Shown here in pieces: positions 8,634 to 37,267 of a stretch of DNA of 64,000 nucleotides. A model generated the notes under the pieces. That model saw only the letters and a list, made by a program, of their open reading frames with translations. It was not told where the DNA came from and ran no database searches. This DNA comes from Polyangiaceae bacterium. Its GTDB lineage: Bacteria > Myxococcota_A > Polyangia > Polyangiales > Polyangiaceae. The stretch lies in contig CBDCTZ010000016.1 in the NCBI GenBank assembly GCA_965222375.1, positions 3,411,963-3,475,962 of the forward strand. Reading direction: 5' to 3'. Both the position numbers and the translations under genes were made by a program. The first letter of the stretch is position 1, and the number at the start of each line of letters is the position of its first letter.

Positions 8634-9215
8634 GTGGATCGGGGGACGCATGTCTTCTGGGGGATCATTACGGCGCTGGTCATTGCCTCCGCCATTTTCG
8701 GCTCGCTTGCAGAAGACCGACGGCGCGCGGCGCAAACCCGCGGAGGAGATCTGCAAACGGGTGACATGGTTCAGCTCTTCCGCGTGACGGATGGCGACAC
8801 TCTTGTCGTCCGCACGAAGGACGGGGATGAGGCAGTCGTGCGGCTCTTGGGTATCAAGTGCTTCGAACCGTCTCGCGGCAAGGATCCCATCGCCAAGTTC
8901 GGAAGGGCAGCGATCAAAGCCGTCAAGCGCCGCGTCGGGGACCAGCCGCTTCGGGTCCTGCTCCATTCCACGCCCAAGGATCGCCACGGTCGCACCATTG
9001 CCACGCTGATCATCGGGGAGGACGATCTGGCCCGGTACCTGATCAGCCAGGGGCATGCACTGGTTTATCCGGTCTACCCCTTCCCGACGATGCCCGTCTA
9101 TCTGGACGCGCAGTCCAAGGCCCGCGATCAGGGCAACGGGCTGTGGGCAGATGATGCCGCCAGCCGACGTGCCGACGTGCTGTTGGCCGACTGGGGAAAG
9201 CGGGCAGCAGAATGA
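8634..9215 (+). CDS. thermonuclease (SNase) family protein with N-terminal membrane anchor
   Basis: RVTDGDTL, VRLLGI, DRHGRTIA, LISQGHA and GLW motifs. Confidence 0.9.
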   Translation: MDRGTHVFWGIITALVIASAIFGSLAEDRRRAAQTRGGDLQTGDMVQLFRVTDGDTLVVRTKDGDEAVVRLLGIKCFEPSRGKDPIAKFGRAAIKAVKRRVGDQPLRVLLHSTPKDRHGRTIATLIIGEDDLARYLISQGHALVYPVYPFPTMPVYLDAQSKARDQGNGLWADDAASRRADVLLADWGKRAAE

Positions 9216-10255: not shown

Positions 10256-10316
10256 GTCGCGGTCTTTTTTCGCTGCGTGAATTGCACTTTGTCGAGCTCC
10301 GCCTGATGCTCCTTTC

Positions 10317-17515: not shown

Positions 17516-19143
17516 GGTCCGCCCTTTCGACGCAGGGGCACGAAAGACAGGACATTGGAAAACGCGAAGGTGAAACCTCCCGCGCTCGTGTCCATGCGAA
17601 AGCCAAGGTTCGCGGTCAGGTCCACCGGCAACAGCTGCACCCGTGAGTAACCCCGGGCCGGATCCGAGAGATCTCTCTGATGTGCGACGCCGTACACTCC
17701 GGCGCTACCAAAGAAGTCGATGCCGTAGACGGATCGAGTGCCTCGGTAGAGGGGGATGCGATACTCGCCACCCACCTTGCCGGCGTAGTGCCCATAACGA
17801 ACCTCGACGATCGCCGTATCCAAGAAGTTGGGTGGCGGCCTGCGGTCGAAGTTGAGCCCCAGTACGCGCCCAGGCAGAAAGTCGCTGAAGTCGCCTACGT
17901 AGTACTGCTCGAAGAAGGGCGCGTCGCCGGCGATGGCACCGCCGAAGAGTTCCAAGCGCACCACGTGCTTCCAGGGCAACTGCCACCAGCGCGAAGCGTG
18001 CAAGTCGAACTTCTGGTAGCCATAGTCGCTGCCCAGGGGTGCCAGTGCGCTTTCGGCCGTGAGGGACGCGTACCAGCCCTGGCTGGGCAGGAACGGCGAG
18101 TCTCGGGTGTCATGCTGCAGGGTGGCCCGTGCCGTCGACAGCACACTGCGGCCGCCCTGGATGTCGAATACGATGGGCTCTCGAGCCAGACCTCGAACGT
18201 GAGACGCTGCCCGGGGCAACTTCGTGTCCAGAGACTCTAGGCGGTAGTGGAGCCAGAGTTGCGTCGCGACTGAGAGATCGCGACCGACACCGAGGTTGCC
18301 ACCAAAGCGTTTGTAGCGCACTACGGCGTGGTCTGGTACGTCCTGCAACTGGGACGGATCGTCGAACAAGACGTCCGCGTTGCCGAAGGAGTCCTTGGCA
18401 TCGTTGAACAGGAGTTGCCCGCCGACCATCCAGCGACTGCCGAGGAATGCGGGATCCAGAAAGCGAACACGGAGTGCCAGCTGGTCCTGCGCCAAGCCGA
18501 CAGCCGTGCCCAGAGTGATTCCGGTGCCCGCAACGTTGGTTTCTGCGAGGTCTACGCCCGCGTATGCGGTGAGAGGTCGAGAGTTTCCGCGAGTGTCTGC
18601 GTCCGCTGAAAGCCCCATCCAAAGGTCGCCGATCACGATCGTGTTCCGCTCGACCACCTCGATGAGCAAAACGACTTTGCCTCGGGTCGAGCCCTTCTTG
18701 AGGGAGAACTGGACGTCCCGGAAGAAACCAGTGCCCAACAAGCGGTAGCGGGTCAGTTCGACTTCGGGGTCGTCGACGCGAATGATGTCCCCGGCTTTGA
18801 AGGGCACGTAGCGAAGGACCACCCGAGAGCGTGTGCGCCTGTTGCCGCGCACCTGAATGCCTTCAAGCTCGTAACGCAGCGTCGATTCGCCGAACCGTGT
18901 CTTGCGTGTACTCGAAGGCCGCGCGACGGGTGGAGCGACATCCTCCGGGTTGGGTAGGGGCACCTCTACAGCTTCGGGCACGGCGGGCTCCGGACGGGTT
19001 CCGCCGCCCCAGGTATCTGGTGCGACGTCCTTGGGCGCTGTTTGGGGCTCGGGTGCCGGAGCGGGAGGGCCCGGCTCTGGTTGCGCGAACGCGCGGGGAG
19101 CAGCAAACAGCACCACGGCGGCTGCGCACGCAAGCGGCCGCAT
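17512..19143 (-). CDS. Omp85/BamA-TamA family outer membrane protein (single POTRA + barrel); start 19143 or further upstream
   Basis: POTRA IQVRGNRRTRSRVVLR..RLLGTGFFRDV..IEVVER; barrel HDTRDSPFLPSQGW. Confidence 0.85.
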   Translation of the reverse strand: MRPLACAAAVVLFAAPRAFAQPEPGPPAPAPEPQTAPKDVAPDTWGGGTRPEPAVPEAVEVPLPNPEDVAPPVARPSSTRKTRFGESTLRYELEGIQVRGNRRTRSRVVLRYVPFKAGDIIRVDDPEVELTRYRLLGTGFFRDVQFSLKKGSTRGKVVLLIEVVERNTIVIGDLWMGLSADADTRGNSRPLTAYAGVDLAETNVAGTGITLGTAVGLAQDQLALRVRFLDPAFLGSRWMVGGQLLFNDAKDSFGNADVLFDDPSQLQDVPDHAVVRYKRFGGNLGVGRDLSVATQLWLHYRLESLDTKLPRAASHVRGLAREPIVFDIQGGRSVLSTARATLQHDTRDSPFLPSQGWYASLTAESALAPLGSDYGYQKFDLHASRWWQLPWKHVVRLELFGGAIAGDAPFFEQYYVGDFSDFLPGRVLGLNFDRRPPPNFLDTAIVEVRYGHYAGKVGGEYRIPLYRGTRSVYGIDFFGSAGVYGVAHQRDLSDPARGYSRVQLLPVDLTANLGFRMDTSAGGFTFAFSNVLSFVPLRRKGGP

Positions 19144-19474
19144 GGGAGGTAAGACGAGCCAGCTGCGGAGGTGATTCATCAAAGAAAATGTCCTCCCCGC
19201 TGCTGCCATATTAGCCCGAAAAAGGCAGGTTACGCGCGAGAGCGTTCCAGAGCTCATTCGGCGTGGTTTCGACCTCGTACGTTGCTGCTGTGAGCTGTCT
19301 GGACGATGTCATGATCGGGTCGCCGTGCTCCAATTTGCGTGGCGTTACCTCTGCCGCTGGCGCAGGACCACGAGCTAGGGCGTGTCCAAAACCGCTGGAA
19401 GCTACAGTGATGAATGCCGCCCGAAATCCCACCGCAATCCGCCCTTTCGTCCAGTTCCGTCTTAGCACGAGAAA

Positions 19475-20518
19475 TTGCCGAAACGTGCGCTACCATCCCA
19501 GGTGGTGGACAGAGAGCTGATCGGAGGTCGGTACCGGGTGCTGCGCATGATGGGCGAAGGCGCAGCGGCCAAAGTGTATGCTGCAGAAAGCCAGCTATTT
19601 GGTCGCGTTGCGCTCAAAGTGCTCCACGAACCCTTGGCGCGTGACGAATCCGTGGTGCAGCGCTTCGTGCACGAAGCGCGCGCAGCAAGCGCGATTCAAC
19701 ACCCCAACGTGGTGCGCGTGTTCGACCTTGGGAAGCATGGTGACGTGCCCTTCATGGTCATGGAGCTTTGCGAAGGTGAGACCCTGCGAGAGGTGATTGA
19801 CGCCAGAGGTGCAGTTGGGCCGCAATACGCTTGCGAGCTTGGCGCCCAGGTCCTGAGTGCCCTCGAGGCGGCTCATGCTGCGCAGATTGTGCATCGTGAC
19901 CTGAAGCCGGCCAATGTGATGGTCGTGCATCCCGAACCCGACCGTCCGGTGATCAAAGTGTTGGATTTCGGGATCGCCAAGCGCCTACTGTTCGGTGACG
20001 CTCATGACGACGCTAAAGTGTTTGGGACGCCCAGCTACATGGCGCCGGAGCAAATCCGTTTGCGTCCAGTGGACCACCGCGTGGACATCTACGCGGTGGG
20101 CGCTCTGCTGTACGAGCTAATGACCGGCAAGCCGCCGTTCCGCGGTGCGACCCCTGCCGAGGTCATGACCCAAGTCGTATCTCGGCCACCCATGCCCATG
20201 CGGGCTTCAGATCGCGCGCTGCCCAAAGATCTGGACGAGTTGGTCCGGCGCTGCCTTGCCAAGAGCCCAGGGCGGCGGCCCGGTTCCGCGCGGGAGTTGA
20301 GCGAGGCCCTGCAGGCGCACGGTGGTGGACCTATCTCGGTGCCGCCAGCAGATCGCGCCAGCCACGAGCCCGTACCCCTACTGGTTCGCGGCCGGCCCCC
20401 AGAAACCGAAGCCATTCCTTTGCGGCCACGGACGAAGAAGGCCGGCCGCGCGAGTTCTCCGGCACCGCCACGGCTGGAGCTCGTGGCTGACGGAGAAGAC
20501 ACAGCCGACCCAGACTGA
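19475..20518 (+). CDS. cytoplasmic Ser/Thr protein kinase (start may be GTG 19502)
   Basis: GEGAAAKVY, VALK, HRDLKPAN, DFG, GTPSYMAPE, DIYAVG; no TM. Confidence 0.93.
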   Translation: MPKRALPSQVVDRELIGGRYRVLRMMGEGAAAKVYAAESQLFGRVALKVLHEPLARDESVVQRFVHEARAASAIQHPNVVRVFDLGKHGDVPFMVMELCEGETLREVIDARGAVGPQYACELGAQVLSALEAAHAAQIVHRDLKPANVMVVHPEPDRPVIKVLDFGIAKRLLFGDAHDDAKVFGTPSYMAPEQIRLRPVDHRVDIYAVGALLYELMTGKPPFRGATPAEVMTQVVSRPPMPMRASDRALPKDLDELVRRCLAKSPGRRPGSARELSEALQAHGGGPISVPPADRASHEPVPLLVRGRPPETEAIPLRPRTKKAGRASSPAPPRLELVADGEDTADPD

Positions 20519-20528
20519 ACCATCTCGC

Positions 20529-22064
20529 TCATGGCGCGCGTTCGTAGGTTGTCGCCAGCTTTCTCAGGCGGACCGCCAGGCGGCGATTCAAGTCCCGCGG
20601 AGAGACCCGCCACGCCCAATTGTTCTCCGACGTGCCAGGCACGTTCATACGAGCCCGACTGCCCAGCCCGAGGCAATCTTGAAGGGGCACGACGGCCACT
20701 GCGGCGATGGACGAGTACGCCAGGCGAATCAGCTGCCAATGCGGTGGCTCGCGGCTCGCTCCCAGATAGGCATGCAGGCGTCTTCGTTCGTCCAGGCCGG
20801 CTCTGCCGCCGCGCCCTAGGCTGCGATACCAACCCAGCGAGGTGTCGTTGTCGTGGGTGCCCGTGTAGACGACGGTGTCCCTGGAAAAGCGATGGGGCAG
20901 GTATTCGCTGCCTTCGGGATCCCCAAAGGCGAATTGGAGTACACGCATTCCTGGCAGCCCGAGAGACTCGCGAAGCGCAACGACCTGAGGCGTCACGATG
21001 CCCAGGTCCTCAGCCAAGAAGGGCAAGTCGCCGAGCGCTTTTCGAACCCGCGCGAACAACGCTTCTCCCGGCACAGGGACGAACCGGCCCCCTCGCGCAT
21101 CTTTCGCCGCAGCCGGTATCTCCCAGCAGCGCGAGAACCCGATGAAGTGATCTAGGCGGACGACGTCGAACAGTTCCAAACAGCGTTGAAATCGAGCGAC
21201 CCACCACGCGAACTTGGCTGCTTGCATCGCCTTCCAGTCGTACACGGGGTTGCCCCATAGCTGCCCGGTCGCGCTGAACAGATCCGGAGGAACGCCGGCC
21301 ACGACGCGGCGACTGCCGTCGGCGTTCAGGCGGAATAGGGATTGGTTTGCCCAGACGTCAGCACCGTCATGGGCGACGAACATCGGTACATCACCCAGCA
21401 ACGCAATTCCCTTTTCGCGGCAGTATTTGGCTAGGGCTTGCCACTGAGAATCGAACACGAACTGCACCCATTCGTGGAACGCAATCTCGGACCGGAGTTC
21501 TTGCTGAGCCGCTGCGACGGGCTCGGGTTGGCGGCTTCTCAGACCCCGGCGCCACTGCATCCAGTGCTTTCCGGGATTGCCTGCATGCAGCGCAGAGAAG
21601 AGGCAGTGGTCCGGAAGCCAGGCCGACTGGGTTTGCCGAAAATGCTGCAGGCCCTTCGGTGGTCGGTGGCGCAAAAAGCGGGCGTGGGCGCGTCGGAGTC
21701 TCTCTTCCCTGAATTGCTGGCTCTCGAGCAGCTGGGCACGTCCAGTCCTGAAGCTCTTTGGAGGAGCGGTCTCTCGCTTCGTCAGCAGGCCGTCGCGCTC
21801 CAGTTGCACCAGGCTGATCAGCCACGGACTGCCAGCGAAGGTGCTCGACGTGTCGTAGGGGGATGCTCCCCAACCCGGCGGGCTCACCGGCAGCGTTTGC
21901 CAAACGCTTTGACCCGACGCTGCCAGGAAGTCTGCGAAGACGAACGCTGCAGGTCCGAGATCTCCGTGGCCGTGGGGGCCAGGGAGGGAAGTCAGATGCG
22001 CTAGGACGCCCGCTCGGCGCTGGCGGGTCAGATCGAAGCCAGGACGCTCAGCTCGGCTCTTCAC
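20529..22064 (-). CDS. malQ: 4-alpha-glucanotransferase (GH77)
   Basis: GVLAHLTSLP, GDVP, GVPPDLFSATGQLWGNP, RLDHF, AEDLG, YTGTHDNDT, RMNVPG. Confidence 0.95.
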   Translation of the reverse strand: MKSRAERPGFDLTRQRRAGVLAHLTSLPGPHGHGDLGPAAFVFADFLAASGQSVWQTLPVSPPGWGASPYDTSSTFAGSPWLISLVQLERDGLLTKRETAPPKSFRTGRAQLLESQQFREERLRRAHARFLRHRPPKGLQHFRQTQSAWLPDHCLFSALHAGNPGKHWMQWRRGLRSRQPEPVAAAQQELRSEIAFHEWVQFVFDSQWQALAKYCREKGIALLGDVPMFVAHDGADVWANQSLFRLNADGSRRVVAGVPPDLFSATGQLWGNPVYDWKAMQAAKFAWWVARFQRCLELFDVVRLDHFIGFSRCWEIPAAAKDARGGRFVPVPGEALFARVRKALGDLPFLAEDLGIVTPQVVALRESLGLPGMRVLQFAFGDPEGSEYLPHRFSRDTVVYTGTHDNDTSLGWYRSLGRGGRAGLDERRRLHAYLGASREPPHWQLIRLAYSSIAAVAVVPLQDCLGLGSRARMNVPGTSENNWAWRVSPRDLNRRLAVRLRKLATTYERAP

Positions 22065-22962
22065 GCTTAACCGGACGTAGCAAGGAAGCGACGATGGCTA
22101 GGGTCAGCACAGCCGCGATAATCCCCAAACTGGCCAGATTGGGCACTTTGTAGACTTCCGCCGCCAACATCTTCACGCCAATGAAAACGAGGATGATCGC
22201 GAGGCCGACGTCCAAGTAGTGGAACCGGCTCATCATCCCGCTGAGCATGAAATAGAGCGCCCGCAGACCCAGAATCGCAAAGATGTTCGAAGTGTAGACG
22301 ATGTACAGGTCGTCGGAGATCGCGAGTACCGCGGGAACGCTGTCCACGGCGAAGACGACGTCCGTGAACTCGACGACGATCAGCACCAGAAACAACGGGG
22401 TCGCGTAGCGCACGCCGTCTTTGATCACGAAGAACTTGTTGTCGACCATCTCCTTGGTTGTGCGTAGGTACTTCCGTGCGAGGCGGAGGGCGATGTTGTT
22501 CTCCGGGTCGACCGAGTCGTCCTTCTTCAGTGCGAGCTTTGCGCCCGTGAATACCAAGAATGCGCCAAAAATATACATCGTGAAGTGGAAGCGATGCAGT
22601 AAGGCGGTGCCGGCCAGAATGAACACCGCGCGCATGACCACCGCACCGAACACGCCCCAAAACAACACGCCGTGCTGATGTTGTTCTTTCACTTTGAAGT
22701 AGGTGAAGATCACCAAGAAGACGAACAGATTGTCGACGGAGAGAGATTTCTCCACCAGATACGCGACGAGGTAGCTGACGGACTTTTCCGTCCCGAGACG
22801 TTGCTGGATCCAGATGGCGAAGAGGAGGGCGACCGCTATCCAGATCACACTGCGGATAGAGGCCTCCCGGAAAGAGACGCGGTGTGCGCTGCGGCCGAAT
22901 ATCAGCGTATCGGCCAGCATGGTCACTAGGACTATCCCGGCAAATACCCCCCAATCGAGCAT
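22048..22962 (-). CDS. TerC/Alx family membrane protein
   Basis: EKSLSVDNLFVF, DVVFAVDSVPA, TSNIFAILGLRALYF. Confidence 0.93.
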   Translation of the reverse strand: MLDWGVFAGIVLVTMLADTLIFGRSAHRVSFREASIRSVIWIAVALLFAIWIQQRLGTEKSVSYLVAYLVEKSLSVDNLFVFLVIFTYFKVKEQHQHGVLFWGVFGAVVMRAVFILAGTALLHRFHFTMYIFGAFLVFTGAKLALKKDDSVDPENNIALRLARKYLRTTKEMVDNKFFVIKDGVRYATPLFLVLIVVEFTDVVFAVDSVPAVLAISDDLYIVYTSNIFAILGLRALYFMLSGMMSRFHYLDVGLAIILVFIGVKMLAAEVYKVPNLASLGIIAAVLTLAIVASLLRPVKREEPS

Positions 22963-23093
22963 GGCCGCGCTGCCGAGCATCGCCGGGGTGCTATCACGCG
23001 GCCATCGCCCCGGCTAGCCGAACGCGGGGCCGGACGCCAATTCGGCGTTCTCCATTGCGCGGCCCGGGGCGCTTGCCATACACCCAGGCGGTA

Positions 23094-26000
23094 GTGGTAC
23101 CCGCTCGATCGCACCTGCTCTCCGTCTGCCTGCTGCTGCTGGGCCTCAGCCTGACGTTGCGCTCAGCCCTCGCCGCGCCCCCGGGGGATGCCGGGGTCAG
23201 CAGAGATGCTTCGACTCCAAACACCGACGCCGAGGTGCAGGAGGTCCTGCGGCGCGCGAAGCAGGTGCAGCAGTTGATCGCGGAGACCTTGGACCCAACG
23301 GTCGAGCCGGCGTCTCTGTTCAGCGTCGTGCTGACCGATGAGCGGGCTGTTGCCGTCGAGGCCCAACGACTGCGTGCACTGCTAGCGCGGGCCAGCACCG
23401 CACTCCCGGATGCAGGAGCGCCAGAGTCAGGTGCGCCCGACGAGAAGAAGGCTGGTGCGGGCGCCAAAGCGGAGCCGGGCAAACCTGGCGTGCCGGACGC
23501 TTCCGTGCGCCCGCCGACGCCCGCGTCGGGGCTGAGCGCCAAAGAGACCAAACTCTGGCGCGCCCGTCTGGAGCTGGATGCCGCCCAGTTGAGGTTTCTG
23601 AAACTGCCGAAGCGGGTCCGGGCTGCGAAACTGACTGCCCATGAAAAGCGTCGAACCGAGGCGAGCAAGCAGGGTACAGGCGTTGACCAAGCTCAGAAGA
23701 AGGCAGAGGCGGCTGCAGAGGCCAAGAAGCGAGCTTTGGAGCAGGCCAAGCGAGCCCGCAGCGAAGCGGCGCGTCTGGTCGCGGAGGAGGAAGCGCGCCT
23801 CTTGGGCGTCAAGGAGGACCAGGCTCGCTTCGAAGCCACTCTGGCCAAGTCCGAGGCCAAGACTACCAAGCGGGCTGAAGAGGCATTGGCCTGGCGACGC
23901 CGAGTGGCGAACCTCGTTTCTGAGCGCAAAGAAGGCAAGAAGACCCCGGAAGAGGCGGATGCCCTGTATGGCGAGTTGCGCAAGGCCCTTAGAACGGCGC
24001 GGGACGAGCTGGCGAGCTCACTTTCCACCCTCGCGAAGCTAGAGCTGCCGCGAGTCGGTGCAGACCGCCTCGACACAGCGGGTGCCGCGGTGGATCGGAG
24101 CAAGGTCGACAAGTTGCGCTCGGAGCTCGCGTCCCAGGAGTCCAAACTCGAGGCTCGAGAAAAGAAGATGCGCACCGCGAGGGCAAAGGCGCTGCTCGAG
24201 CAGGTGGAATCCCTGAATCGGGATCGACTCGCCCTCTATCCGCATCTCAGCAGTGCAAAGCGCTCCGCGCTGACTAGCTTCAACGTGCCCGGAATCGATC
24301 AGGCTCGTGCAGAGGCACGCCAGGTGACTCTGGTGATGCGCTACCACGTGCGAGCGTCGTGGAATTGGATCACCAATCTCCGTGATCCGAATCGGGATCG
24401 CGCGGGCGAAGTCGTTGCCGGTTTCAGCCTGCTCAAGATATTGGTGCTGATCGGAATCTTCTTCTGGTGGCGCCGTCGGGCCCGCTCCATCATCGAAATG
24501 TTGCGCGAACGCATGGAGGAGGCACGCCGCGAGTATCGAGGCGCGCGCTGGCTCACCTACGCGGATCGCGCGGTGAATCTGGTGGACCGGGTCCATAATC
24601 CAGTCGCTTGGCTGATCTTCGTGTGGGGAGTTGGCTACCTCGCGGGGCCTGGCGTCAGCGACTTGTACGAAGTCGAACTGCTCTGGATCGTTCTGAGCTG
24701 GACCCTCGGGGGAAACATCGTCGTGCACGTGATCGATGTAGGTTTTGGCCACGGGACCAGGATTTCGAGGCAGCGTGGATCGGACGCTTTGCGCTACAAG
24801 TCTCTGCGTCTGGTTGGGCGAGTCATCGTTACCGTGGGTCTGTTCTTGGCGCTCACCAATCACTTGGTTGGGCGTGGGACCATCTACAGTTGGGTCCTCT
24901 CTAGCTTCTGGTTCGCTGCTATTCCCATCACACTGGTTATCGTTCGCTGGTGGCAACCGGTGGTTTTCGAGCGCCTCAGCCTGCTTCGCAAGAAGAGTGC
25001 GTTTGTAGAATGGGTGCTCAATCGAAAGGCAGGCTGGACGAGTTTCCCAGCCGCGGCTGCCGGTGGTGCGTACCTCGTGGGTCTGGGCACCGTGCGCACT
25101 CTGCGAACCTACGTCAGTACGTTCGAGACGACGCGGAGAGTGCTTGCCTACTTGTTTCGACGCGAAGCGGCCAAGCAGGCTCGAGAACGCGGCAGCCGCC
25201 CCACTAAGCCACTGGCGGCGGCGACCTACGATTCTCTAGGGCCTCAGGAAGGCACGGATACGCCCGTGCCGGGGGTTGGCGATGCCGAGATTGTGTCAAT
25301 CAAAGCTGCCATCGACAGTCCCGGTGGCGGCGTGTTTGCGCTGGTCGGGGAGCGGGGCCGTGGAAAGAGCATGCTGCTCGATCGTATTCTGGGAGAGAAG
25401 CCGAGCAGTCTACACATGCACTGCCCGGTGGGCGGCGCGGGGGCGTTTAGGGAAGAGCTGACTCGGGTCCTCGAGCTTGAGCCCGGCGCCGCTGACGACG
25501 CCATCTCCCAGGCGTTGAGTGCTCTGGGGGAGAACAACGCGCTGCTGGTCGACGATGCTCACCGCCTGGTGACCCCCACCATTGGCGGATTGGACGACTT
25601 CGACCAGATCATCGCATTGGCACGGGAATCGAGCAACACGACGACGTGGGTGTTCTGTATCGGGGCCGTGACCTGGCAGTACGTGGAGCGCGCCCGCGGC
25701 GCGCGACCGGTTTTCGACGAAGTGATCAAGGTCTCGCGTTGGAGTGAAGAAAACATCGCCACGATGCTGAAGTTGCGCAGTGCTCGCGCTGACATCAAAC
25801 CGGTGTTCGATGATCTCGTCGGCGAAGAAGAGGATGACGAGGTGCTGCGCCGAGAGCAGTTGGCGCGTACCGAGGCCAGCTACTACCGGTTGTTGTGGGA
25901 CTACGCTGCGGGCAACCCTGCAGTGGCGGTGCACTTCTGGCGTGAGTCTCTCGGCGTCGACGATGAAGGCAACGTGCGGGTGCAGCTGTTTCACGCTCCG

Positions 26001-26258
26001 GACACCACGGATATCGAGCGCCTCCCCGACACGTCCATTTTCGTGTTGCGCGCCGTGATTCAATTGGAGCTTGCGCGGCCCGTGGATATCTTGGCCGCGA
26101 CCATGTTGCGACCCCGCGAAATCGAGGACGCTCTGCGCTACACCTTGTTTCGTGGTTACCTGGAAATAGTGGATGAGCGCTACCGTGTGACCTGGACCTG
26201 GTTTCGCGCGATCACTCGGGTGCTACAACGACGGCACTTGATCGCCACTGGGAGCTGA
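23094..26258 (+). CDS. large exported coiled-coil / multi-TM protein with C-terminal P-loop NTPase and probable winged helix
   Basis: GTG 23094 precedes a signal peptide (LLSVCLLLLGLSLTLRSALA); long Ala/Glu/Lys/Arg coiled coil; about 5-6 TMs; Walker A GERGRGKS (~25347-25370); Walker B LLVDDAH; later AGNP motif. Confidence 0.8.
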   Translation: MVPARSHLLSVCLLLLGLSLTLRSALAAPPGDAGVSRDASTPNTDAEVQEVLRRAKQVQQLIAETLDPTVEPASLFSVVLTDERAVAVEAQRLRALLARASTALPDAGAPESGAPDEKKAGAGAKAEPGKPGVPDASVRPPTPASGLSAKETKLWRARLELDAAQLRFLKLPKRVRAAKLTAHEKRRTEASKQGTGVDQAQKKAEAAAEAKKRALEQAKRARSEAARLVAEEEARLLGVKEDQARFEATLAKSEAKTTKRAEEALAWRRRVANLVSERKEGKKTPEEADALYGELRKALRTARDELASSLSTLAKLELPRVGADRLDTAGAAVDRSKVDKLRSELASQESKLEAREKKMRTARAKALLEQVESLNRDRLALYPHLSSAKRSALTSFNVPGIDQARAEARQVTLVMRYHVRASWNWITNLRDPNRDRAGEVVAGFSLLKILVLIGIFFWWRRRARSIIEMLRERMEEARREYRGARWLTYADRAVNLVDRVHNPVAWLIFVWGVGYLAGPGVSDLYEVELLWIVLSWTLGGNIVVHVIDVGFGHGTRISRQRGSDALRYKSLRLVGRVIVTVGLFLALTNHLVGRGTIYSWVLSSFWFAAIPITLVIVRWWQPVVFERLSLLRKKSAFVEWVLNRKAGWTSFPAAAAGGAYLVGLGTVRTLRTYVSTFETTRRVLAYLFRREAAKQARERGSRPTKPLAAATYDSLGPQEGTDTPVPGVGDAEIVSIKAAIDSPGGGVFALVGERGRGKSMLLDRILGEKPSSLHMHCPVGGAGAFREELTRVLELEPGAADDAISQALSALGENNALLVDDAHRLVTPTIGGLDDFDQIIALARESSNTTTWVFCIGAVTWQYVERARGARPVFDEVIKVSRWSEENIATMLKLRSARADIKPVFDDLVGEEEDDEVLRREQLARTEASYYRLLWDYAAGNPAVAVHFWRESLGVDDEGNVRVQLFHAPDTTDIERLPDTSIFVLRAVIQLELARPVDILAATMLRPREIEDALRYTLFRGYLEIVDERYRVTWTWFRAITRVLQRRHLIATGS

Positions 26259-26262
26259 TGAG

Positions 26263-27201
26263 ATGAAACGCCCGATCCTTCGTTCCGCAGCGCTGAGCAT
26301 CTTCGGCCTGGTCTTCGCGACGCCGGCACTGGCCTACGCTCAGGATCCTCCCGACGTTTCGCAGATTGTGAGCTTCGTGCGCTGGAGTGGCGTGGCGGTG
26401 TCCATTCTGGTGATCGCGGGTGCCACCATCACGCTCAGATTCCTGTCTGGAATCGTCGTCCGGCTGAGCGAGCGGTTCACGAATCGTCGGCTTCTGTTCA
26501 GCAAGATCGAAAGTTTCACTCGCTTCTTTCTCTACTTCGCCACCGGCATCGTCGTGGTTGGGCTTTCCTTCCAGATCAATCAGACGGTGCTCACCCTCAT
26601 TGGCGGCACCTTCGCGGTGGCGGTGGGTTTCGCGATGCGGGATTTGGTCGCGGCCATGATCGCCGGCGTGACCATCATGTTCGACCGCCCATTCCAGGTG
26701 GGTGACCGCGTGCAATATGCCGGCGAATATGGCGATATCGTTGCCATAGGCTTGCGTTCCGTCCGAATGCAGACGCTGGACGACAACACGGTGACCATCC
26801 CCAACAACAAGATCCTCACGGACGTGACCAGCTGTGGGAACTACGGCGCCTTGGACATGCAGGTGTCCATCGTCTTCTTCATAGGAATCGATCAAAATAT
26901 CGAGCTGGCCGAGCGTCTCATTACCGAAGGCATTCTGAGCAGCCGCTACGTCTTTCTGGAAAAGCCAGTCGTCGTCATCATGAAGCAGGTCATCAAGGAC
27001 GACTATGTGGCCCTACAAATGGCTGGCAAAGCCTACGTTCTGGATACGAAGTACGAGAAACTCTTCGAAACGGACGTGACCAAGCGAGTTCTGACCGCTT
27101 TTCACACCCATGGCATCTTGCCGCCCGCTGTGCTGCACCGCGCGGTCGACACGGCTGTATATGAGAAGCCGCACACCAAGAAGGCGAGAGCAGAGGCATG
27201 A
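26263..27201 (+). CDS. small-conductance mechanosensitive channel (MscS family)
   Basis: GFAMRDLVAAMIAGVTIMFDRPFQVGDRV, IGLRSVRMQTLDDNTVTIPN. Confidence 0.93.
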   Translation: MKRPILRSAALSIFGLVFATPALAYAQDPPDVSQIVSFVRWSGVAVSILVIAGATITLRFLSGIVVRLSERFTNRRLLFSKIESFTRFFLYFATGIVVVGLSFQINQTVLTLIGGTFAVAVGFAMRDLVAAMIAGVTIMFDRPFQVGDRVQYAGEYGDIVAIGLRSVRMQTLDDNTVTIPNNKILTDVTSCGNYGALDMQVSIVFFIGIDQNIELAERLITEGILSSRYVFLEKPVVVIMKQVIKDDYVALQMAGKAYVLDTKYEKLFETDVTKRVLTAFHTHGILPPAVLHRAVDTAVYEKPHTKKARAEA

Positions 27202-27812
27202 GGGAGCTGGTCGTTGTTGTTCTGGGCACGCTGTTGCTGTCGGCTTGTGAGCAGAAGAAGGAAACCCCAAAGCCCCTGCTCATCGAACCAGCCACGACAC
27301 CAGCCAAGTCGGCAGTAGCGGCGCTGCCCAGGCCGGCAACCCACGGCGGTGCTCGCGCGTTGGGCGTTAGTTGGTCCGATGTTCCAGGGCTGACCAAGCT
27401 CAGTGGCAAGCGTCCGATGCGCGCCGCCAGCTATCAAGCGCCCGCCGCGGATGGCGACAAGGAGCCGGGGGACTTGGGCGTGTTCTACTTTGGTGCTGAC
27501 GAGGGTGGTGGCGTCGAGAGCAACATGAAGCGCTGGGTTGGGCAGTTTCCGGGGACACCCAAAGAGCGGATACGTCGCAGCCAGCGGACGGAGAATGGTC
27601 TCTTGCAGCACATCGTCGAGGTGGACGGCGAAAAATTCATGAGCGGCGTGCCTGGAGGCCCAAAGACGCCGAAGGACAAGTACGCGATGATCGCCTTCAT
27701 CGTCGAAGCCCCCAGTGGTCTCTATTTCTTCAAGCTGACCGGGCCCCAGGCCACGGTCGAAAAGGCCAAAGAGCCACTGTTTTCGATGATGAAGACCGTG
27801 CAGGTGAAGTAG
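27198..27812 (+). CDS. lipoprotein of unknown function
   Basis: Lipobox LLSAC; ATGA overlap with mscS; GGGVESNMKRWVGQF and YFFKLTGP motifs. Confidence 0.75.
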   Translation: MRELVVVVLGTLLLSACEQKKETPKPLLIEPATTPAKSAVAALPRPATHGGARALGVSWSDVPGLTKLSGKRPMRAASYQAPAADGDKEPGDLGVFYFGADEGGGVESNMKRWVGQFPGTPKERIRRSQRTENGLLQHIVEVDGEKFMSGVPGGPKTPKDKYAMIAFIVEAPSGLYFFKLTGPQATVEKAKEPLFSMMKTVQVK

Positions 27813-27822
27813 CCGGCCCCCG

Positions 27823-28965
27823 CTACACCATTTGTTGGGGCTGCTTGGTGCCTTCCTTCTTGCGTGTGCGCAGGATCCGGATGCCGACATCGAAGCGGAT
27901 GAACGCCAGCATCACGATGAGGATCAGGCCGACGCCGAAGCCGGCCAGGACTCGATTGGGCTCTGCCTTGATGAACACCGCACCTTCGCCAATGCGCGGG
28001 TGCTCCGCCGAGTCGGCCTTGAGTCCGTGGGACTTCGCGATCTTCGCGATGTTGCTCACGTGAACGACTGGCGTGCCTCGCTCCGCGAAGCGCAGCATCA
28101 CGGAATCCAGAAGCCCTTCTCCGCGGGGAGGCTCCAGATTGAGCCCGGGGCGGAACTGCTTCTTGCCAACGTGCGTGCCCACCGACGCGGAACCGCCTCC
28201 AACGTTGACGTACGCCTTGATCGAGCGGTTGCCTGCGCGAGCGTCATAGTGCGCCATGCGAAGTTCGATAGAATCCACGAGGGACTTGCCTTCGATCCGT
28301 TCGACATTGTTGCGCGCGATGGCCGCCTCGATCAGGGCTCGCCCTTCTTTGCTCATGCCCAGGCCGCGGTCGTCGATACCGCCCCGGGACGCCGCAGTGG
28401 AGCGGTACGAGAAGACCTTGTTTTCGAACAGGGTTCGCTCCATGTCGAGCCAGGTGTAGTTGGGGTCGTTCGCGCCCCACTCCGAGCCAGACACACTGGC
28501 AACCACGATGGCTTGGGCCTCGAGCACGTGCAGGGCGGCGAAGGTCGACACTGAGAGCGCGGGAAATGACCCCGAAAGGCCCACGGCAACCACATCGCCC
28601 CGCTCCACACCGGCGCGTTTCAAGAAGTGCAGGATGACGGCCGCGAAGTTGGGGTTGGTGCTGGCACGCTTGGCGCTGATGTAGCCTGTGTTCGATGTGA
28701 TTGGCGTGAGTGAGAAGCCAATCAAGCCGGTTTGGTGCGGATCTGCTTCGGGGTCGATGACCAAGCCGCGTTGGATGCGCTCGGCTTTGATTGTGCGCAT
28801 CGCGTCGTGGGAGAGGCGCGCCGCGCGGATCTTCTCGGCCTGCCACGACTGCTTCCGAACCACGGGGAAGCGCTCGACGATGACGAGCGCGGCGATTGCC
28901 GCGAGTGCGATCATCGCGAGCGCGGAGCGGGAGATCCCGGGGGGACGCCAATAGACGCGCTTCAT
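27823..28965 (-). CDS. pgsW: poly-gamma-glutamate system protein PgsW
   Basis: TGLIG..TPITS, KRASTNPNF, SGSFP, SEWGAN, YVNVGGG; third gene of the pgsB-pgsC operon. Confidence 0.85.
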   Translation of the reverse strand: MKRVYWRPPGISRSALAMIALAAIAALVIVERFPVVRKQSWQAEKIRAARLSHDAMRTIKAERIQRGLVIDPEADPHQTGLIGFSLTPITSNTGYISAKRASTNPNFAAVILHFLKRAGVERGDVVAVGLSGSFPALSVSTFAALHVLEAQAIVVASVSGSEWGANDPNYTWLDMERTLFENKVFSYRSTAASRGGIDDRGLGMSKEGRALIEAAIARNNVERIEGKSLVDSIELRMAHYDARAGNRSIKAYVNVGGGSASVGTHVGKKQFRPGLNLEPPRGEGLLDSVMLRFAERGTPVVHVSNIAKIAKSHGLKADSAEHPRIGEGAVFIKAEPNRVLAGFGVGLILIVMLAFIRFDVGIRILRTRKKEGTKQPQQMV

Positions 28966-29417
28966 CCCGAAAGCTCCGCGCCGACGACGACAATTAGGAT
29001 CAGCCTGACCACCACGGACGCCGTGACCAACGCTGCTAGGGTTTCGACGATGCCCTGCCGGTCAAGCCAGATGGCGATCAGGCCTGGGATGATGAACCCG
29101 ATGACCTGGATTTCGGCCCCACCGAAGCCCACGCTACCGGTCGTCCAGCGTAGGGCCATGCCTACGAGATAGCCGACGAGAATCATCAACACCGTCCGGC
29201 GGCGGCCATAGATGATGATGAAGGAGGACAGGGTGTGAACAACCGCGAACGTCGCGAACCCAGCCAGCACCGTCAACAGCACATCGATGGGGCGGTTGAG
29301 GGATAGCGCCAAGTACCCCGGCACGATCATGCCACCCGCGGCGATGCCGAACATCTCCGTGAACAGTAGGCTGACAGCCAACCCGATACCCACGGATAAG
29401 GGGAGAAGCTCAATCAT
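28962..29417 (-). CDS. pgsC: poly-gamma-glutamate biosynthesis protein PgsC/CapC
   Basis: GIAAGGMIVPGYLAL, IIYGRRR, IGFIIPGLIA..RQG. Confidence 0.95.
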   Translation of the reverse strand: MIELLPLSVGIGLAVSLLFTEMFGIAAGGMIVPGYLALSLNRPIDVLLTVLAGFATFAVVHTLSSFIIIYGRRRTVLMILVGYLVGMALRWTTGSVGFGGAEIQVIGFIIPGLIAIWLDRQGIVETLAALVTASVVVRLILIVVVGAELSG

Positions 29418-30606
29418 GATCCACCGGAACTGAGCGATTACGAAAGTAGCGAGTCAGGGGCAATCCATCTCCGCCGATGTTGCCCAGACCCATGACCAAC
29501 GCGGAACCATCTACCAGTGCGACGATTTGCTCGAAGAGCTCTTCGACGTCGATGTCTTCCGCGAAAACGAAGCGGCCCGAGTCCACGCCGACGCGAATGG
29601 CAGCCCGGGCGAAGAGATAGGTGCCGGTACCCATCAGCACGTATTTGTCCGCGGGGGTCCAACTCGCGATCTCGGCGCCCAATCGAAGGCTCCGATCTGG
29701 CCGGTCCGCACGGCAGTTGAATACCGCGATCTTCGTTTTCACTCTCGGGTTGCGGGCCAGGGCTAGGTTCCAGAGCTGCTCGCTGGATATGGGGTCGTTT
29801 GCCGCGAAACCGTTGACGAAGACGATGTGACGACCAAAGAACGAAAGCTCGAAGGAAGTCAGCGCGCCTGGGTCCGGCTTGGTCTTGTACATGCCTTGGA
29901 GCGCGAGCTCCCGTTCGACACCCAAGTCTTCGCAGACGGAAAGGGCGAGCGCCACGTTGTCAGGGTGCTCCACGTAAGAGAAACGAGAAAGCTCCTCATC
30001 GCTGACTCGCGCGACTTCATCCCGATCGACCGTGACGAGGCTCGTGCCACGGTCTTCGGCGGCTTGCTTCAGGACCGGTAGCTGACGCTGCTCCGCCGTG
30101 AAGAGCTTTCCCTTCACGGGCACCATGCCGCAGAGCGCTCGTGCCACGTCGACTTCTCCTGGTCCCATCACGTCCAAGTGATCAGGGCGAGTATTGGTGA
30201 TGACCCCGTGGGTCGCCCGAACCAGCTTCAGCTCGCTCAGGGAGATCAACTCTGGCGTCAAGGCCATACACTCAACGATGAGCGCTTCAGCGTCGTGAGC
30301 CGCGGCTGCCGCCACGATGCGCTTTTGCTCGATCACATTGGCGCCCGAGGGGCGGAAGATCGGCAGCTCGCGGCCGTCGGGCAAGATGAAGCGGGCCAGC
30401 GTCCCGGTGGTTTTGGCGCAGGTCACCATGCCCGCCTCTCGCAGCGCCGATGCGATCAGTCGCGTGACGCTGGACTTTCCCCGAGTGCCACTGACGTGCA
30501 CTCGGATGCGGACCGTATCGAGCTTCTTGCGGTGCGCCCATAGTTCAGCTGCACCCAGGACGAGCAAAAGGGCGGTGGCGACGATCAGCAGAGTGGTGCC
30601 AGACAT
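29410..30606 (-). CDS. pgsB: poly-gamma-glutamate synthase PgsB/CapB (Mur-ligase-like)
   Basis: RVHVSGTRGKSSVTRLI, KTTGT, ECMAL, ITNTRPDHLDVMGP, NGFAANDP, NCRADRPDR, GNIGG. Confidence 0.95.
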   Translation of the reverse strand: MSGTTLLIVATALLLVLGAAELWAHRKKLDTVRIRVHVSGTRGKSSVTRLIASALREAGMVTCAKTTGTLARFILPDGRELPIFRPSGANVIEQKRIVAAAAAHDAEALIVECMALTPELISLSELKLVRATHGVITNTRPDHLDVMGPGEVDVARALCGMVPVKGKLFTAEQRQLPVLKQAAEDRGTSLVTVDRDEVARVSDEELSRFSYVEHPDNVALALSVCEDLGVERELALQGMYKTKPDPGALTSFELSFFGRHIVFVNGFAANDPISSEQLWNLALARNPRVKTKIAVFNCRADRPDRSLRLGAEIASWTPADKYVLMGTGTYLFARAAIRVGVDSGRFVFAEDIDVEELFEQIVALVDGSALVMGLGNIGGDGLPLTRYFRNRSVPVDHD

Positions 30607-30695
30607 GGCGGGCGGCTCGGGTATACGCCGAGGCTCGCCCTGTCCGCAATTCGTAAGCGATTCCCGAACTCAGGACGCCAGTCTGAATCCGTCTG

Positions 30696-32087
30696 TCACC
30701 AGGGAAACCACTCTCTCGGCATCTTCTGCCACTCGGTTGGGCGCCTTGGATCTCCCTCGGGGATGACCAGGGAGCCCACGAAGTCTGCGTGCTCGTAGAC
30801 GCCACCGATGCTCTTGGCGATTCCGTCCAAGTCCTTCTCGCTGACCACACCGTTGCTGGTGGCCTTGTAGAACTGCACAGTGATTCGAATCGGAAAGCGG
30901 TCATCGCGCACCAGCTTCAACCCGCCACCCTCTTCGAAGGGGCCTCGGTTTCTGCCGTGTCCCAGTACGGCTTGTTCGACATCACTGCGGGGCCGCGCAG
31001 ACTTCTTGGCGGGTGCGGCGCCGGCGGAGGGCGCTGCCATGTCGGCGGCCATCACCTCGCTGGCCGTGCCTTCGGCTAGGCCGCCCAGAAAGCCGCGCTG
31101 TTTGTGTTTCAAGGGGACCTGGATCAGGAACAGCGCGTCGGCGCCCCGAGCCAGAGCGCTCTTGTCGTCCTGGGTCTTGGGCCCGCCCTTGGCGGCGATC
31201 CGTTTCTTGACGTCGCTCTTGCGCTCCGCCGTGAAGGCTGCCCGCTGACCCTCGTTGTTGAAGTACAGCTCCTGTCCGGCGCCCCGGACGACGCTATCTT
31301 CAGGTCGATTCTCGATCACGGTCATGCTCGTGCCCTGGCGCGTAACCAAAATGGTCAGCACGGCTGGAGAGCCAGGCGCCGATTGGTAGTTGAAGATGAC
31401 CGGGTTGAACTCTGCCTTTCCCTTCTTGGGAATCGGCAGAAACACTGCTTGGGCGCTGACCAGGAAGTGCGTATCTCGCTTGGCTAATAGGTTGCCACTG
31501 CCCTTGATGCTCCAGGGCTTCGCGGCGAACTTGCGCAGGTTCTTCAGAACGTCTGTGAGGGGAACGGTTTTCAGCTGCTTCTTGTTGCGATGGTTGCCCA
31601 CGCGAATGAGGAACTTGTTGGCAGGTACATCTCCGGTTCGATCGCTGAAGTTCGGAAAGCGCAGTACCGGCATCAGCGCGGTGCGCTCGCCATCAGCACC
31701 CGGTTTGCGGTACCGGACCTGCAGCGTCAGGTCCGAGATGTTGGGCCCCAGAGACGAGCCCTTTGCGCGCCCGGTATCCTCCCACATCACGTTGAGAACG
31801 TTCAGACCGCGCCGCTTCGCTCCGCGAACGACCTGCTGGTCTCCGGTCATGGCTACCACCTTGTCGACCACTTTGGAGTAGCTTGGATCGCCGATGATGC
31901 CCCACTCTCCGTCGTCGGGCATCGGGTTGTCGGCATCTGGATCGCCAGTGGCGATTTGATTCTCGGTTCCCGAGGCCGCCACCGGTGCTGCGGGCTTGCC
32001 ACCGGGCGCGTTCGACTGGGGTTGCCCCGAGGCGCACGCCGCGAGGAGGGCCAAGGTCAAGCCGGTCAGTGAGCTGCGTTTGATCAT
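30696..32087 (-). CDS. lipoprotein of unknown function
   Basis: RBS AGGAG; lipobox LLAAC; ordered motifs WEDTGR..GPNISDLTLQV and RFPIRITVQFYKATSNG. Confidence 0.8.
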   Translation of the reverse strand: MIKRSSLTGLTLALLAACASGQPQSNAPGGKPAAPVAASGTENQIATGDPDADNPMPDDGEWGIIGDPSYSKVVDKVVAMTGDQQVVRGAKRRGLNVLNVMWEDTGRAKGSSLGPNISDLTLQVRYRKPGADGERTALMPVLRFPNFSDRTGDVPANKFLIRVGNHRNKKQLKTVPLTDVLKNLRKFAAKPWSIKGSGNLLAKRDTHFLVSAQAVFLPIPKKGKAEFNPVIFNYQSAPGSPAVLTILVTRQGTSMTVIENRPEDSVVRGAGQELYFNNEGQRAAFTAERKSDVKKRIAAKGGPKTQDDKSALARGADALFLIQVPLKHKQRGFLGGLAEGTASEVMAADMAAPSAGAAPAKKSARPRSDVEQAVLGHGRNRGPFEEGGGLKLVRDDRFPIRITVQFYKATSNGVVSEKDLDGIAKSIGGVYEHADFVGSLVIPEGDPRRPTEWQKMPREWFPW

Positions 32088-32108
32088 CGTGTTCTCCTAG
32101 GATCTTGA

Positions 32109-32134
32109 TACGTCTCACAACCAAAAACGTTTTG
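32109..32134 (-). promoter_or_regulatory. candidate ECF-sigma promoter (CAAAAC-N16-CGTA)
   Basis: Minus strand CAAAAC gtttttggttgtgaga CGTA, 21 bp upstream of the 32087 start; matches the generic ECF AAC/CGT pattern. Confidence 0.4.
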
Positions 32135-32156
32135 TGTCGGGGGCTACTTACACCAA

Positions 32157-32188
32157 CGCCGAGCACGCGAGGAGTCGCATGCTCGGCG
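32157..32188 (-). terminator. GC-rich hairpin after the VIT/vWA gene, possible terminator
   Basis: CGCCGAGCA-tGCGA-ctcc-TCGCg-TGCTCGGCG stem; only a weak T tail. Confidence 0.45.
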
Positions 32189-32208
32189 CTGACCGCGACG
32201 CTCGAACT

Positions 32209-36669: not shown

Positions 36670-36673
36670 CGTC

Positions 36674-37267
36674 TTACTCCTTACTCCTGGCGACATCCCG
36701 CAATTTGCAGAGCGCCCTCGAGACTCGTTTTCGCGCGGCGGCCTCTTCGATGCCGCACGCCTGTCCCACTTCCCGAAATGACAGCTCGCTGCCGTAGCGC
36801 AGCCAAAGGGCTTCTCGTTCACTGGGCCGGACTTGTTCCAGCATGGCGCGGGCCTTTTCGGCCCGTTGCCTCAAGACGACGAGTTCCTCGGTTGTGTCCG
36901 CGCGCGAAGCGTCTACGACGAGCCGTAGCCGCGAGCGCTGTCGGGAAGATTTTTCAATGTGTCGTGCGCACTTGCGGCGAGCGATGGTCAAGAGCCATGC
37001 TTTGAGTGAGCCTTCCGCGCGGTATCCGGCGAAGCCGGCGTGCGCATCCAGAAGCGTCTCCTGAGTCAGATCGTCGGCCTCCGAGCTAGAGCCCGTTAGC
37101 GCCATACACAGTCGGCCGATCGCCGCCCCATGCTGCTTGGCACAGAGAGACAGCGCCTCTCTATGCCTGCCGTCGGCGATGGCGCCGATGATGGCCTGGT
37201 CTTCGGGTGACACCTGCGGTCGTTCACTCCGTGCCGCGCTCGTTCCTGCTTCCGCCGAATGCCCCAT
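36674..37267 (-). CDS. ECF RNA polymerase sigma factor
   Basis: Region 2 EADDLTQETLL..KAWLLTIARR; region 4 REALWLRY..LSFREVG..AARKRVSRALCKLR. Confidence 0.93.
   Translation of the reverse strand: MGHSAEAGTSAARSERPQVSPEDQAIIGAIADGRHREALSLCAKQHGAAIGRLCMALTGSSSEADDLTQETLLDAHAGFAGYRAEGSLKAWLLTIARRKCARHIEKSSRQRSRLRLVVDASRADTTEELVVLRQRAEKARAMLEQVRPSEREALWLRYGSELSFREVGQACGIEEAAARKRVSRALCKLRDVARSKE

Follow-up and report, generated by a model that had tools for sequence, protein, structure and literature searches.

The 64,000-nucleotide window analysed here is the whole stretch from position 3,411,963 to position 3,475,962 of contig CBDCTZ010000016.1 (assembly GCA_965222375.1) of a Polyangiaceae bacterium. 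It contains two adjacent genes encoding a large membrane protein that ends in an AAA+ ATPase module (gene 1) and an MscS-family channel subunit (gene 2), with a predicted lipoprotein gene (gene 3) overlapping the end of the second. Genes 1 and 2 are interpreted as encoding two subunits of one membrane machine, a split MscK-like mechanosensitive channel whose sensor subunit would carry a nucleotide switch; a probability of roughly 55% is attached to this reading. The source genome is 10.6 Mb in size, with a G+C content of approximately 62% across positions 18000-33000 of the window, and its relatives are labelled Polyangiaceae or Myxococcota.

The layout proposed in an earlier sequence-only reading was borne out: a signal peptide, periplasmic helices, five transmembrane (TM) helices and intact Walker A and B motifs in gene 1, an MscS gene 4 nucleotides (nt) further on and an overlap with the lipoprotein gene (Table 1). 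The gene 1 frame is open from position 22884. Initiation at GTG 23094, which has an AGG-rich stretch immediately 5', yields a protein of 1054 amino acids (aa), while an identical protein in the database (P0004) is called as 1067 aa, matching a TTG at 23055; the start is therefore uncertain by 13 codons. Four nt (tgag) separate the gene 1 stop codon (TGA, 26256-26258) from the ATG of gene 2 at 26263, and the stop codon of gene 2 overlaps the ATG of gene 3 at 27198.

Table 1. Features of the locus, numbered from the first base of the window, and two paralogous genes of the same genome, numbered within their own loci (ORF, open reading frame; pLDDT, predicted local distance difference test).
Feature	Position	Strand	Basis
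Gene 1, putative membrane AAA+ partner protein, 1054 aa	23094..26258	+	ORF; 258 homologues of ~1000-1100 aa; full-length model, pLDDT 88
Signal peptide, residues 1-27	23094..23174	+	Hydrophobic residues 8-26, then SALA/AP; translation, hydropathy
Periplasmic part, residues 28-439	23175..24410	+	Models; closest structural match: the periplasmic helices of MscK
Five TM helices, residues 440-617, N-out/C-in	24411..24944	+	Hydropathy, loop charges; spacing as in E. coli MscK 502-676
Cytoplasmic juxtamembrane helices, residues 618-704, with conserved TRRVLAYLFRRE motif	24945..25205	+	Alignments, model
AAA+ core and lid, residues 705-970	25206..26003	+	Walker A 752-759, Walker B 816-821, ERARGARP 865-872, R895
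C-terminal winged helix, residues 971-1054	26004..26255	+	MarR-type match (VIA); weak AspA match; MarR_2 match in paralogue L114
GGGAG, likely ribosome binding site of gene 2, within the 3' end of gene 1	26250..26254	+	Sequence; 8 nt 5' of the ATG
Gene 2, MscS-family channel subunit, 312 aa	26263..27201	+	Signal-like N-terminus, three TM, beta domain, alpha-beta domain; Pfam PF00924, hhalign, hydropathy
Gene 3, predicted lipoprotein, 204 aa	27198..27812	+	Lipobox in translation
Antiporter-type paralogue L113, 1401 aa	L113:4233-8438		Na_H_Exchanger 43-415, module at C-terminus
SLC12-like paralogue L114, 1702 aa	L114:4554-9662		AA_permease 13-413, AAA_16/AAA_22 1382-1496, MarR-like end

The MscS subunit

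Profile comparisons identify gene 2 as an ordinary MscS core. The Pfam beta domain PF00924 matched at 65.2 bits (cut-off 20.2; E 5.7e-18), and alignment by hhalign to residues 30-272 of the 286 of E. coli MscS (YggB), at 98.8%, covered TM helices 1-3 and the beta and alpha-beta domains which the two proteins share; residues 834-1086 of E. coli MscK aligned at 98.2%. Hydrophobic segments were found at residues 48-66, 85-113 and 105-136, a three-TM layout colinear with E. coli MscS and including a Gly/Ala-rich TM3. Gene 2 differs from E. coli MscS in an additional signal-like hydrophobic segment at its N-terminus, in its last 21 residues, which are unconserved, lie beyond the region of alignment and do not align with the C-terminal strand of MscS, and in always having an AAA+ partner gene. 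A profile of the MscS proteins found beside homologues of gene 1 (here termed coil-type, after the periplasmic coil of gene 1) scored its own members at a median of 436 bits, against 37-76 bits for the genome's six MscS paralogues without such a link, and gene 2 and its relatives form a tight orthologous group. Four MscS proteins are counted in M. xanthus (PMC3924187).

Anatomy of the gene 1 protein

An AlphaFold2 model of the whole gene 1 protein, built from an alignment of 105 rows, had a mean pLDDT of 88. It places the juxtamembrane helices, an alpha/beta core (approximately residues 705-970) and a winged helix (971-1054) in that order after the TM bundle. A separate model of residues 145-705 reached a pLDDT of 91.5 and a predicted template modelling score of 0.78. 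The exported part is subdivided in the models into a small helical domain (45-102), a disordered linker (105-142) and long antiparallel helices (149-430). Hydropathy places the TM segments at residues 440-458, 504-522, 529-547, 570-588 and 599-617, and loops rich in lysine and arginine put residues 28-439 outside the membrane and residues 620-1054 in the cytoplasm. Seven residues of the TM region are invariant in the alignment (W536, R567, G575, G593, G595, T596 and W600). No Pfam family was found in residues 1-720 even at E 10, including the N-terminal families of MscK and MscM, and a search of gene 1 against NCBIfam yielded only a sub-threshold match to TrlF.

The AAA+ module

The sole Pfam family on gene 1 is AAA_22, at residues 745-853 (33.7 bits, cut-off 27). 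A P-loop, GERGRGKS, forms the Walker A motif at 752-759, and the Walker B motif, LLVDD, ends in the acidic pair D820/D821. Foldseek searches of the PDB with the modelled module were led by Cdc6, Orc1 and RuvB (Cdc6p 1fnn, E 3.9e-7; Cdc6/Orc1 2qby, E 4.9e-7). VIA, a comparison independent of Foldseek, returned TnsC 9g0f at Z 15.6 (247 residues aligned, root-mean-square deviation 3.9), MuB at 15.4, TnsC 7mbw at 15.0 and Cdc6/Orc1 2qby at 14.9, the initiator and loader matches spanning Z 14.5-15.6 over 225-274 residues. MarR-type winged helices matched residues 970-1054 at Z of approximately 11 over 77-83 residues. From these rankings and the MarR-type matches the module is assigned to the initiator/loader type of AAA+ protein (ORC/Cdc6/TnsC) with its arrangement of core, helical lid and C-terminal winged helix. 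When the family profile was run against PDB sequences, the best match was a short P-loop (E 0.0085).

Within the coil-type family, K758 is retained in 104 of 105 members, D820 and R868 in all 105 and R895 in 104; the second Walker B position is aspartate in 83 and asparagine in 16 of the 105. These residues would fit nucleotide binding with slow, switch-like turnover, and the retention of R868 and R895 may point to a site that depends on oligomerisation.

Resemblance to MscK

The giant MscS-family channels of E. coli, MscK (KefA) and MscM, open with a signal peptide, continue with a helical periplasmic domain several hundred residues long and additional TM helices, and carry an MscS pore core; the same elements are present here. 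Both MscK and the gene 1 protein begin with a signal peptide followed by 410-470 exported residues. When the model of the N-terminal half was searched with Foldseek, E. coli MscK was retrieved in its closed form (7uw5, E 3.4e-3, probability 1.00) and its open form (7ux1, E 6.9e-3), the next match having an E of 0.35 and a probability of 0.13. A wide VIA search ranked MscK second, model residues 84-483 aligning with chain residues 286-682 (Z 9.6, root-mean-square deviation 9.3, 301 residues aligned); over the TM part Flycatcher1, YnaI and a bacterial MscS followed below MscK at Z 8.2-8.6. In a second VIA comparison the two MscK entries occupied ranks 1 and 3 with the longest alignments among the higher-scoring rows, the first again at Z 9.6 with 301 residues aligned and a deviation of 9.3. 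The hydrophobic segments of E. coli MscK at 502-520, 557-575, 584-602, 629-647 and 658-676 coincide with the five TM helices of gene 1 at a single offset.

The N-terminal half of gene 1 is read as sharing the architecture of MscK and, possibly, a remote common origin with it. The likeness appears to stop short of membership of the MscK family. Sensor and pore are not joined in one polypeptide as they are in MscK, lying instead on two genes 4 nt apart, and MscK has no AAA+/winged-helix module. The description of the pair as a split MscK, already offered by the sequence-only reading, thus keeps some structural support of a weak kind in the Foldseek and VIA matches and the TM spacing, but no sequence homology to the N-terminus of MscK was found, profile comparison with the E. 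coli protein by hhalign giving a probability of 8%.

Linkage of the ATPase gene to mscS

A lack of linkage between homologues of the large protein and mscS was one of the findings that the sequence-only reading had named as refuting it. A scan with the family alignment, taking one genome per species, gave 79 loci, and tblastn placed an MscS homologue (48-81% identity) immediately 3' of the ATPase gene, in the same orientation, in 77 of these. A profile search of the phylum detected the family in at least 118 of 401 genomes at E ≤ 1e-20, usually with one match per genome. A second set of 20 distant places was picked from that listing, favouring long contigs and weak matches (22-30% ATPase identity), and an MscS gene lay directly downstream on the same strand in all 20. 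Taken together, and with ATPase identity falling as low as 22%, MscS is the next gene at 97 of the 99 other loci, and the linkage stands. There are two exceptions. In L016 the contig ends 77 nt past the ATPase stop codon. In L054 the next gene encodes a 656-aa protein with Castor_Poll_mid (E 7.4e-17) and RCK domains, a different ion channel; this locus (9000-10970, +) is the only one with room downstream yet no MscS, and the CASTOR/POLLUX-RCK gene is followed there by a Ser/Thr kinase gene.

ATPase and MscS are on separate genes in all the coil-type loci surveyed. An in-frame MscS start was found near the ATPase stop codon in 94 of the 97 loci, at a median distance of +2 nt, the commonest arrangement being a 4-nt overlap; the MscS frame appears truncated or shifted in the assembly at L081 and L100. 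Two tandem MscS copies follow a single distant ATPase homologue at L093:6912-8602. Clustering of all flanking ORFs in the surveyed loci recovered the ATPase in 92 loci and MscS in 69, with the next commonest cluster in 10, and revealed no third conserved gene at the flanks. A minus-strand ORF occupied the MscS position in 29 further loci and is presumed to be the antisense shadow of the MscS gene. Three module-bearing genes and nine MscS-family genes occur in the genome of the window, and each of the three directly precedes one of the nine; the pairing is real and far beyond chance. By these surveys the pair appears conserved across the whole phylum.

Paralogous fusions of the module to transporters

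In the other two module-bearing genes of the genome the N-terminal part is an ion transporter, of the antiporter type in one and SLC12-like in the other (Table 1). When the coil-type family was compared with these two proteins by hhalign, only residues of approximately 724-1050 matched (97.0% and 97.8%), and the middle regions of both paralogues are without TM segments. In each of the paralogous pairs (L113:4233-9355 on contig C14 and L114:3820-9662 on contig C12) a separate, divergent MscS gene follows the fusion gene, and a gene for a sigma-54 activator follows the antiporter-type pair.

Database searches indicate that both fusions are conserved gene families. The antiporter-type search returned 31 proteins, comprising 29 clusters of approximately 1280-1440 aa with PF00999, several of them named 'cation:proton antiporter', a partial protein (P0139) and a fusion (P0154). 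Most of the 120 clusters listed for the SLC12 type are approximately 1700 aa long with PF00324, often accompanied by the SLC12 C-terminal domain PF03522. Two shorter proteins (P0156 and P0160, 1149 and 1223 aa) carry the SLC12-type module and begin within the SLC12 C-terminal domain, which suggests either that some forms have the permease as its own gene or that the gene calls are truncated. With a profile restricted to the module, 3,094 representatives of 50%-identity clusters were matched at E ≤ 1e-30, rising to 4,397 at E ≤ 1e-10, and in the rows inspected by eye the match ended at the C-terminus of the protein.

Linkage was also surveyed for the paralogous types. A search of 301 genomes from the phylum located the SLC12-type module at 21 places, each with an adjacent MscS gene. 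MscS was also next to the antiporter-type module at all 12 of its places, in ten by tblastn and in two (L146 and L147) by Pfam, at 23.9 and 26 bits (cut-off 20.2), where the gene overlaps the upstream stop codon by 4 nt. Over the three architectures the pairing thus holds at 130 of 132 loci. The partners have diversified together, the closest match of each MscS always being one linked to an ATPase of the same type (97/97 for the coil type, 9/9 for the antiporter type and 19/19 for the SLC12 type, the latter two totals falling below 12 and 21 because the weakest matches are lost in the larger database). The coil-type MscS profile scored the antiporter- and SLC12-type partners at 25-39 bits, below the 37-76 bits of the unlinked paralogues, so a common origin of the three MscS partner types is not established.

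P0154 (1515 aa) joins in one frame, in the order of the genes and with a consistent topology, an antiporter, the AAA_22 module, a pair of TM helices and the beta domain of MscS; it may be a genuine fusion or the product of misassembly. The constant element across architectures is the AAA+/winged-helix module beside an MscS gene, with the N-terminal part varying. The periplasmic coiled coil is not what the paralogues have in common.

The catalytic residues of the module are less constant than its position. In the antiporter type the Walker A lysine is replaced by arginine in 9 of 12 sequences, and none of the 12 has an arginine at the position of R868. In the SLC12 type the lysine is kept in 15 of 21 sequences and D820 in 8. 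The term 'ATP-gated' may accordingly hold only for the coil-type subtype. The same replacements bear on the proposal that the AAA+ protein is a dedicated assembly or quality-control factor, inserting, oligomerising or turning over this MscS paralogue and standing outside the working channel. Other proteins are common targets of AAA+ proteins, and such a role would account for the strict pairing; however, many paralogues lose catalytic residues and keep the partnership, the fold is of the initiator/loader kind (ORC, TnsC, MuB) rather than that of an unfoldase, and neither an MscK-like sensor half nor fusions to transporters have an obvious role in assembly. A function of this kind is considered improbable.

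Prediction of the complex

A complex of gene 1 residues 430-1054 with the MscS subunit was predicted as a 1:1 pair, both partners being supplied as alignments. The outcome was classed as 'weak support', with a score of 0.53 against 0.00 for the best of three controls. In calibration 116 of 157 solved complexes and 2 of 215 mismatched pairs attained this mark; only 18 of the 157 did so at 0.60 or under, together with both of the passing mismatches. Agreement of contacts between the runs was 88% or higher, with a partner pLDDT of at least 74. A complex with MscS, as anticipated by the sequence-only reading, is to this extent supported, though as a single pair and with no interface reported.

A model of the machine and its weighing

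Physical binding of the two proteins, their stoichiometry, an effect of gene 1 on gating and a role in the control of turgor or ions are what we infer from these observations. Gene 2 would form the ordinary MscS part of the channel, comprising its pore, its gate and its cage in the cytoplasm. Gene 1 would provide the counterpart of the MscK N-terminal extension, with an exported helical domain of approximately 410 aa and five peripheral TM helices, and would carry a cytoplasmic ORC/Cdc6/TnsC-like AAA+ and winged helix where MscK has its pore. The sensor subunits would pack around the MscS oligomer in the membrane through their five TM helices, as the extension of MscK does, and in the simplest model the AAA+/winged-helix modules would contact the MscS cytoplasmic cage. 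Nucleotide binding with slow hydrolysis would act as a switch rather than a motor, setting whether and how readily the channel opens. Release of solutes would then depend on the energy or ionic state of the cell and on signals from the envelope as well as on membrane tension. The transport themes point to turgor and ion homeostasis, because K+/H+ exchange, cation-chloride cotransport and solute release are all represented and a K+-type channel occurs as a substitute partner.

TnsC-type AAA+ proteins and MscS both form heptamers. A more detailed arrangement can be sketched, tentatively and with the odds against it, in which seven sensor subunits surround an MscS heptamer, seven AAA+ modules form a ring below the cage and opening is determined by nucleotide state together with tension. 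The same interface would couple the K-Cl cotransporter and the K+/H+ antiporter to valves of their own, making these systems uptake-and-release units for turgor control in Myxococcota.

Several points count against the two-subunit channel. The likeness to MscK is carried by helical folds; its Foldseek template modelling scores are only 0.18-0.23, the VIA Z of 9.6 is below the value of approximately 13 advised for helical proteins, the offset at which the TM helices coincide was read from the ends of aligned ranges and not from a residue-by-residue alignment, and homology to the N-terminus of MscK is missing at the sequence level. The loci come mostly from metagenome bins, and relatives are not independent samples. 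The fused antiporter-AAA+-MscS form is known from one cluster, which has one member. In the paralogues the Walker A lysine, D820 or R868 is often replaced, so that nucleotide turnover cannot be what underlies the partnership in every case. The predicted complex passed weakly, as a 1:1 pair lacking a reported interface.

A further point concerns the fold itself, since a winged helix joined to an ORC/TnsC/MuB-type core is a DNA-binding device in known relatives. Gene 1 might on that ground be a membrane-anchored switch or regulator which senses the state of the envelope or osmotic conditions and binds DNA or another cytoplasmic target, the MscS being merely co-expressed as a component of one stress response and making no contact with it. 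The closest folds (TnsC, MuB, Cdc6/Orc1, RuvB and the MarR-like winged helix) all bind DNA in relatives, and the weak pass of the complex prediction would be unsurprising. Pairing at 130 of 132 loci over three architectures, with the types always matched, nonetheless exceeds usual co-regulation. Another channel occupies the MscS position in L054, the fused form P0154 exists, and the 4-nt overlap, with the translational coupling it implies, is the commonest arrangement. A regulator without contact to the channel is for these reasons judged unlikely, and a channel of two subunits remains the preferred interpretation.

Neighbouring genes and the lipoprotein

Lipoprotein signal peptides end in a lipobox, L-[AS]-[GA]-C. 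Gene 3 has such an N-terminus (lipobox LLSAC; MRELVVVVLGTLLLSAC in translation). It matched no family in Pfam, NCBIfam or PADLOC, and in the Atlas it was found only in 'hypothetical' clusters, together with a weak lead to DcrB/PsbP. The lipoprotein had been counted as a member of the operon and was considered as a third subunit. This candidate was rejected: a homologue of gene 3 is present in 2 of 79 loci (L004 and L010), and the flanking ORFs include no third conserved gene. Gene 3 is a lineage-specific passenger outside the conserved module.

A poly-gamma-glutamate synthesis cluster on the minus strand (27823-30606) converges on the pair and encodes PgsB (TIGR04012, E 2e-132), PgsC (TIGR04011) and a system protein (TIGR04332). 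Upstream, at 22048-22980 on the minus strand, lies a gene of the TerC/Alx family (TIGR03718, by name a 'riboswitch-controlled' subfamily), divergent from gene 1 and approximately 110 nt from it. A scan of 22000-28500 against Rfam at E 0.1 gave no match, and thus no riboswitch before the divergent TerC/Alx gene; a promoter and terminator scan remained at background level. The pgs cluster is kept at the same position in the six closest relatives and is found on the opposite side in two more loci (L050 and L062), while TerC and MalQ are neighbours in the six loci of the closest relatives only. A 1537-aa ORF (32209-36822, minus strand) lies just past the region studied.

The neighbourhood is also relevant to the possibility that the two genes form an abortive-infection defence pair, in which phage attack would be sensed by a STAND-like NTPase and answered by opening of a channel effector, with collapse of the membrane potential. 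The NTPase had been read from the sequence as STAND- or AAA-like. Matches to AAA_16 and nSTAND_NTPase5 fell below the cut-offs of these models; VIA also matched the module to Avs and NLR proteins, at Z of approximately 11-12. Tmn, a membrane P-loop NTPase that exports Mg2+, is reported to be a defence protein. By contrast, PADLOC at E 0.01 returned no family for any of the three proteins, the family is present in at least 118 of 401 genomes of the phylum with usually a single match in each, partner types are matched throughout, and TerC, MalQ and pgs neighbours are kept in the nearest relatives. The fusion of paralogues to ion transporters of housekeeping type is equally hard to reconcile with defence, and such a function is regarded as very improbable.

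Relation to known systems and significance

The module shares with ORC/Cdc6, TnsC and MuB the fold of core, lid and winged helix, the Walker A and B motifs and the conserved arginine after strand 4. It differs from them in its membrane anchorage, provided by the five TM helices or the transporter that precede it, and in being partnered with a channel gene instead of genes for replication or transposition. KefC and KefB are K+/H+ exchangers with a C-terminal KTN/RCK nucleotide-binding domain. L113, a Kef-type antiporter bearing the module, likewise combines an ion-transport membrane domain with a cytoplasmic nucleotide-binding regulatory domain; in L113, however, that domain is AAA+/winged helix, not a Rossmann-type KTN, and the next gene downstream is always a dedicated MscS. 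KATP channels consist of a Kir6 pore and an SUR ATPase subunit, and bCNG channels are cyclic-nucleotide-gated relatives of MscS. The concept of a pore controlled by a nucleotide-binding subunit or domain is common to all of these, although the protein families are unrelated.

As far as full-text searches reach, neither a pairing of MscS with an AAA+ protein nor an AAA+ partner of any mechanosensitive channel is described in the literature. MscS channels are treated as self-contained tension-gated valves, and within the reach of literature searches no auxiliary subunit has been described for them. If the reading is correct, the ORC/Cdc6-like nucleotide-switch partner would constitute a second, cell-controlled input into solute release. 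It would also give a functional context to the large accessory part of MscK-type channels, and the initiator-type AAA+ fold would have been put to a use unconnected with DNA. The partnership links three transport systems, namely MscS channels, Kef-type antiporters and SLC12-like cotransporters.

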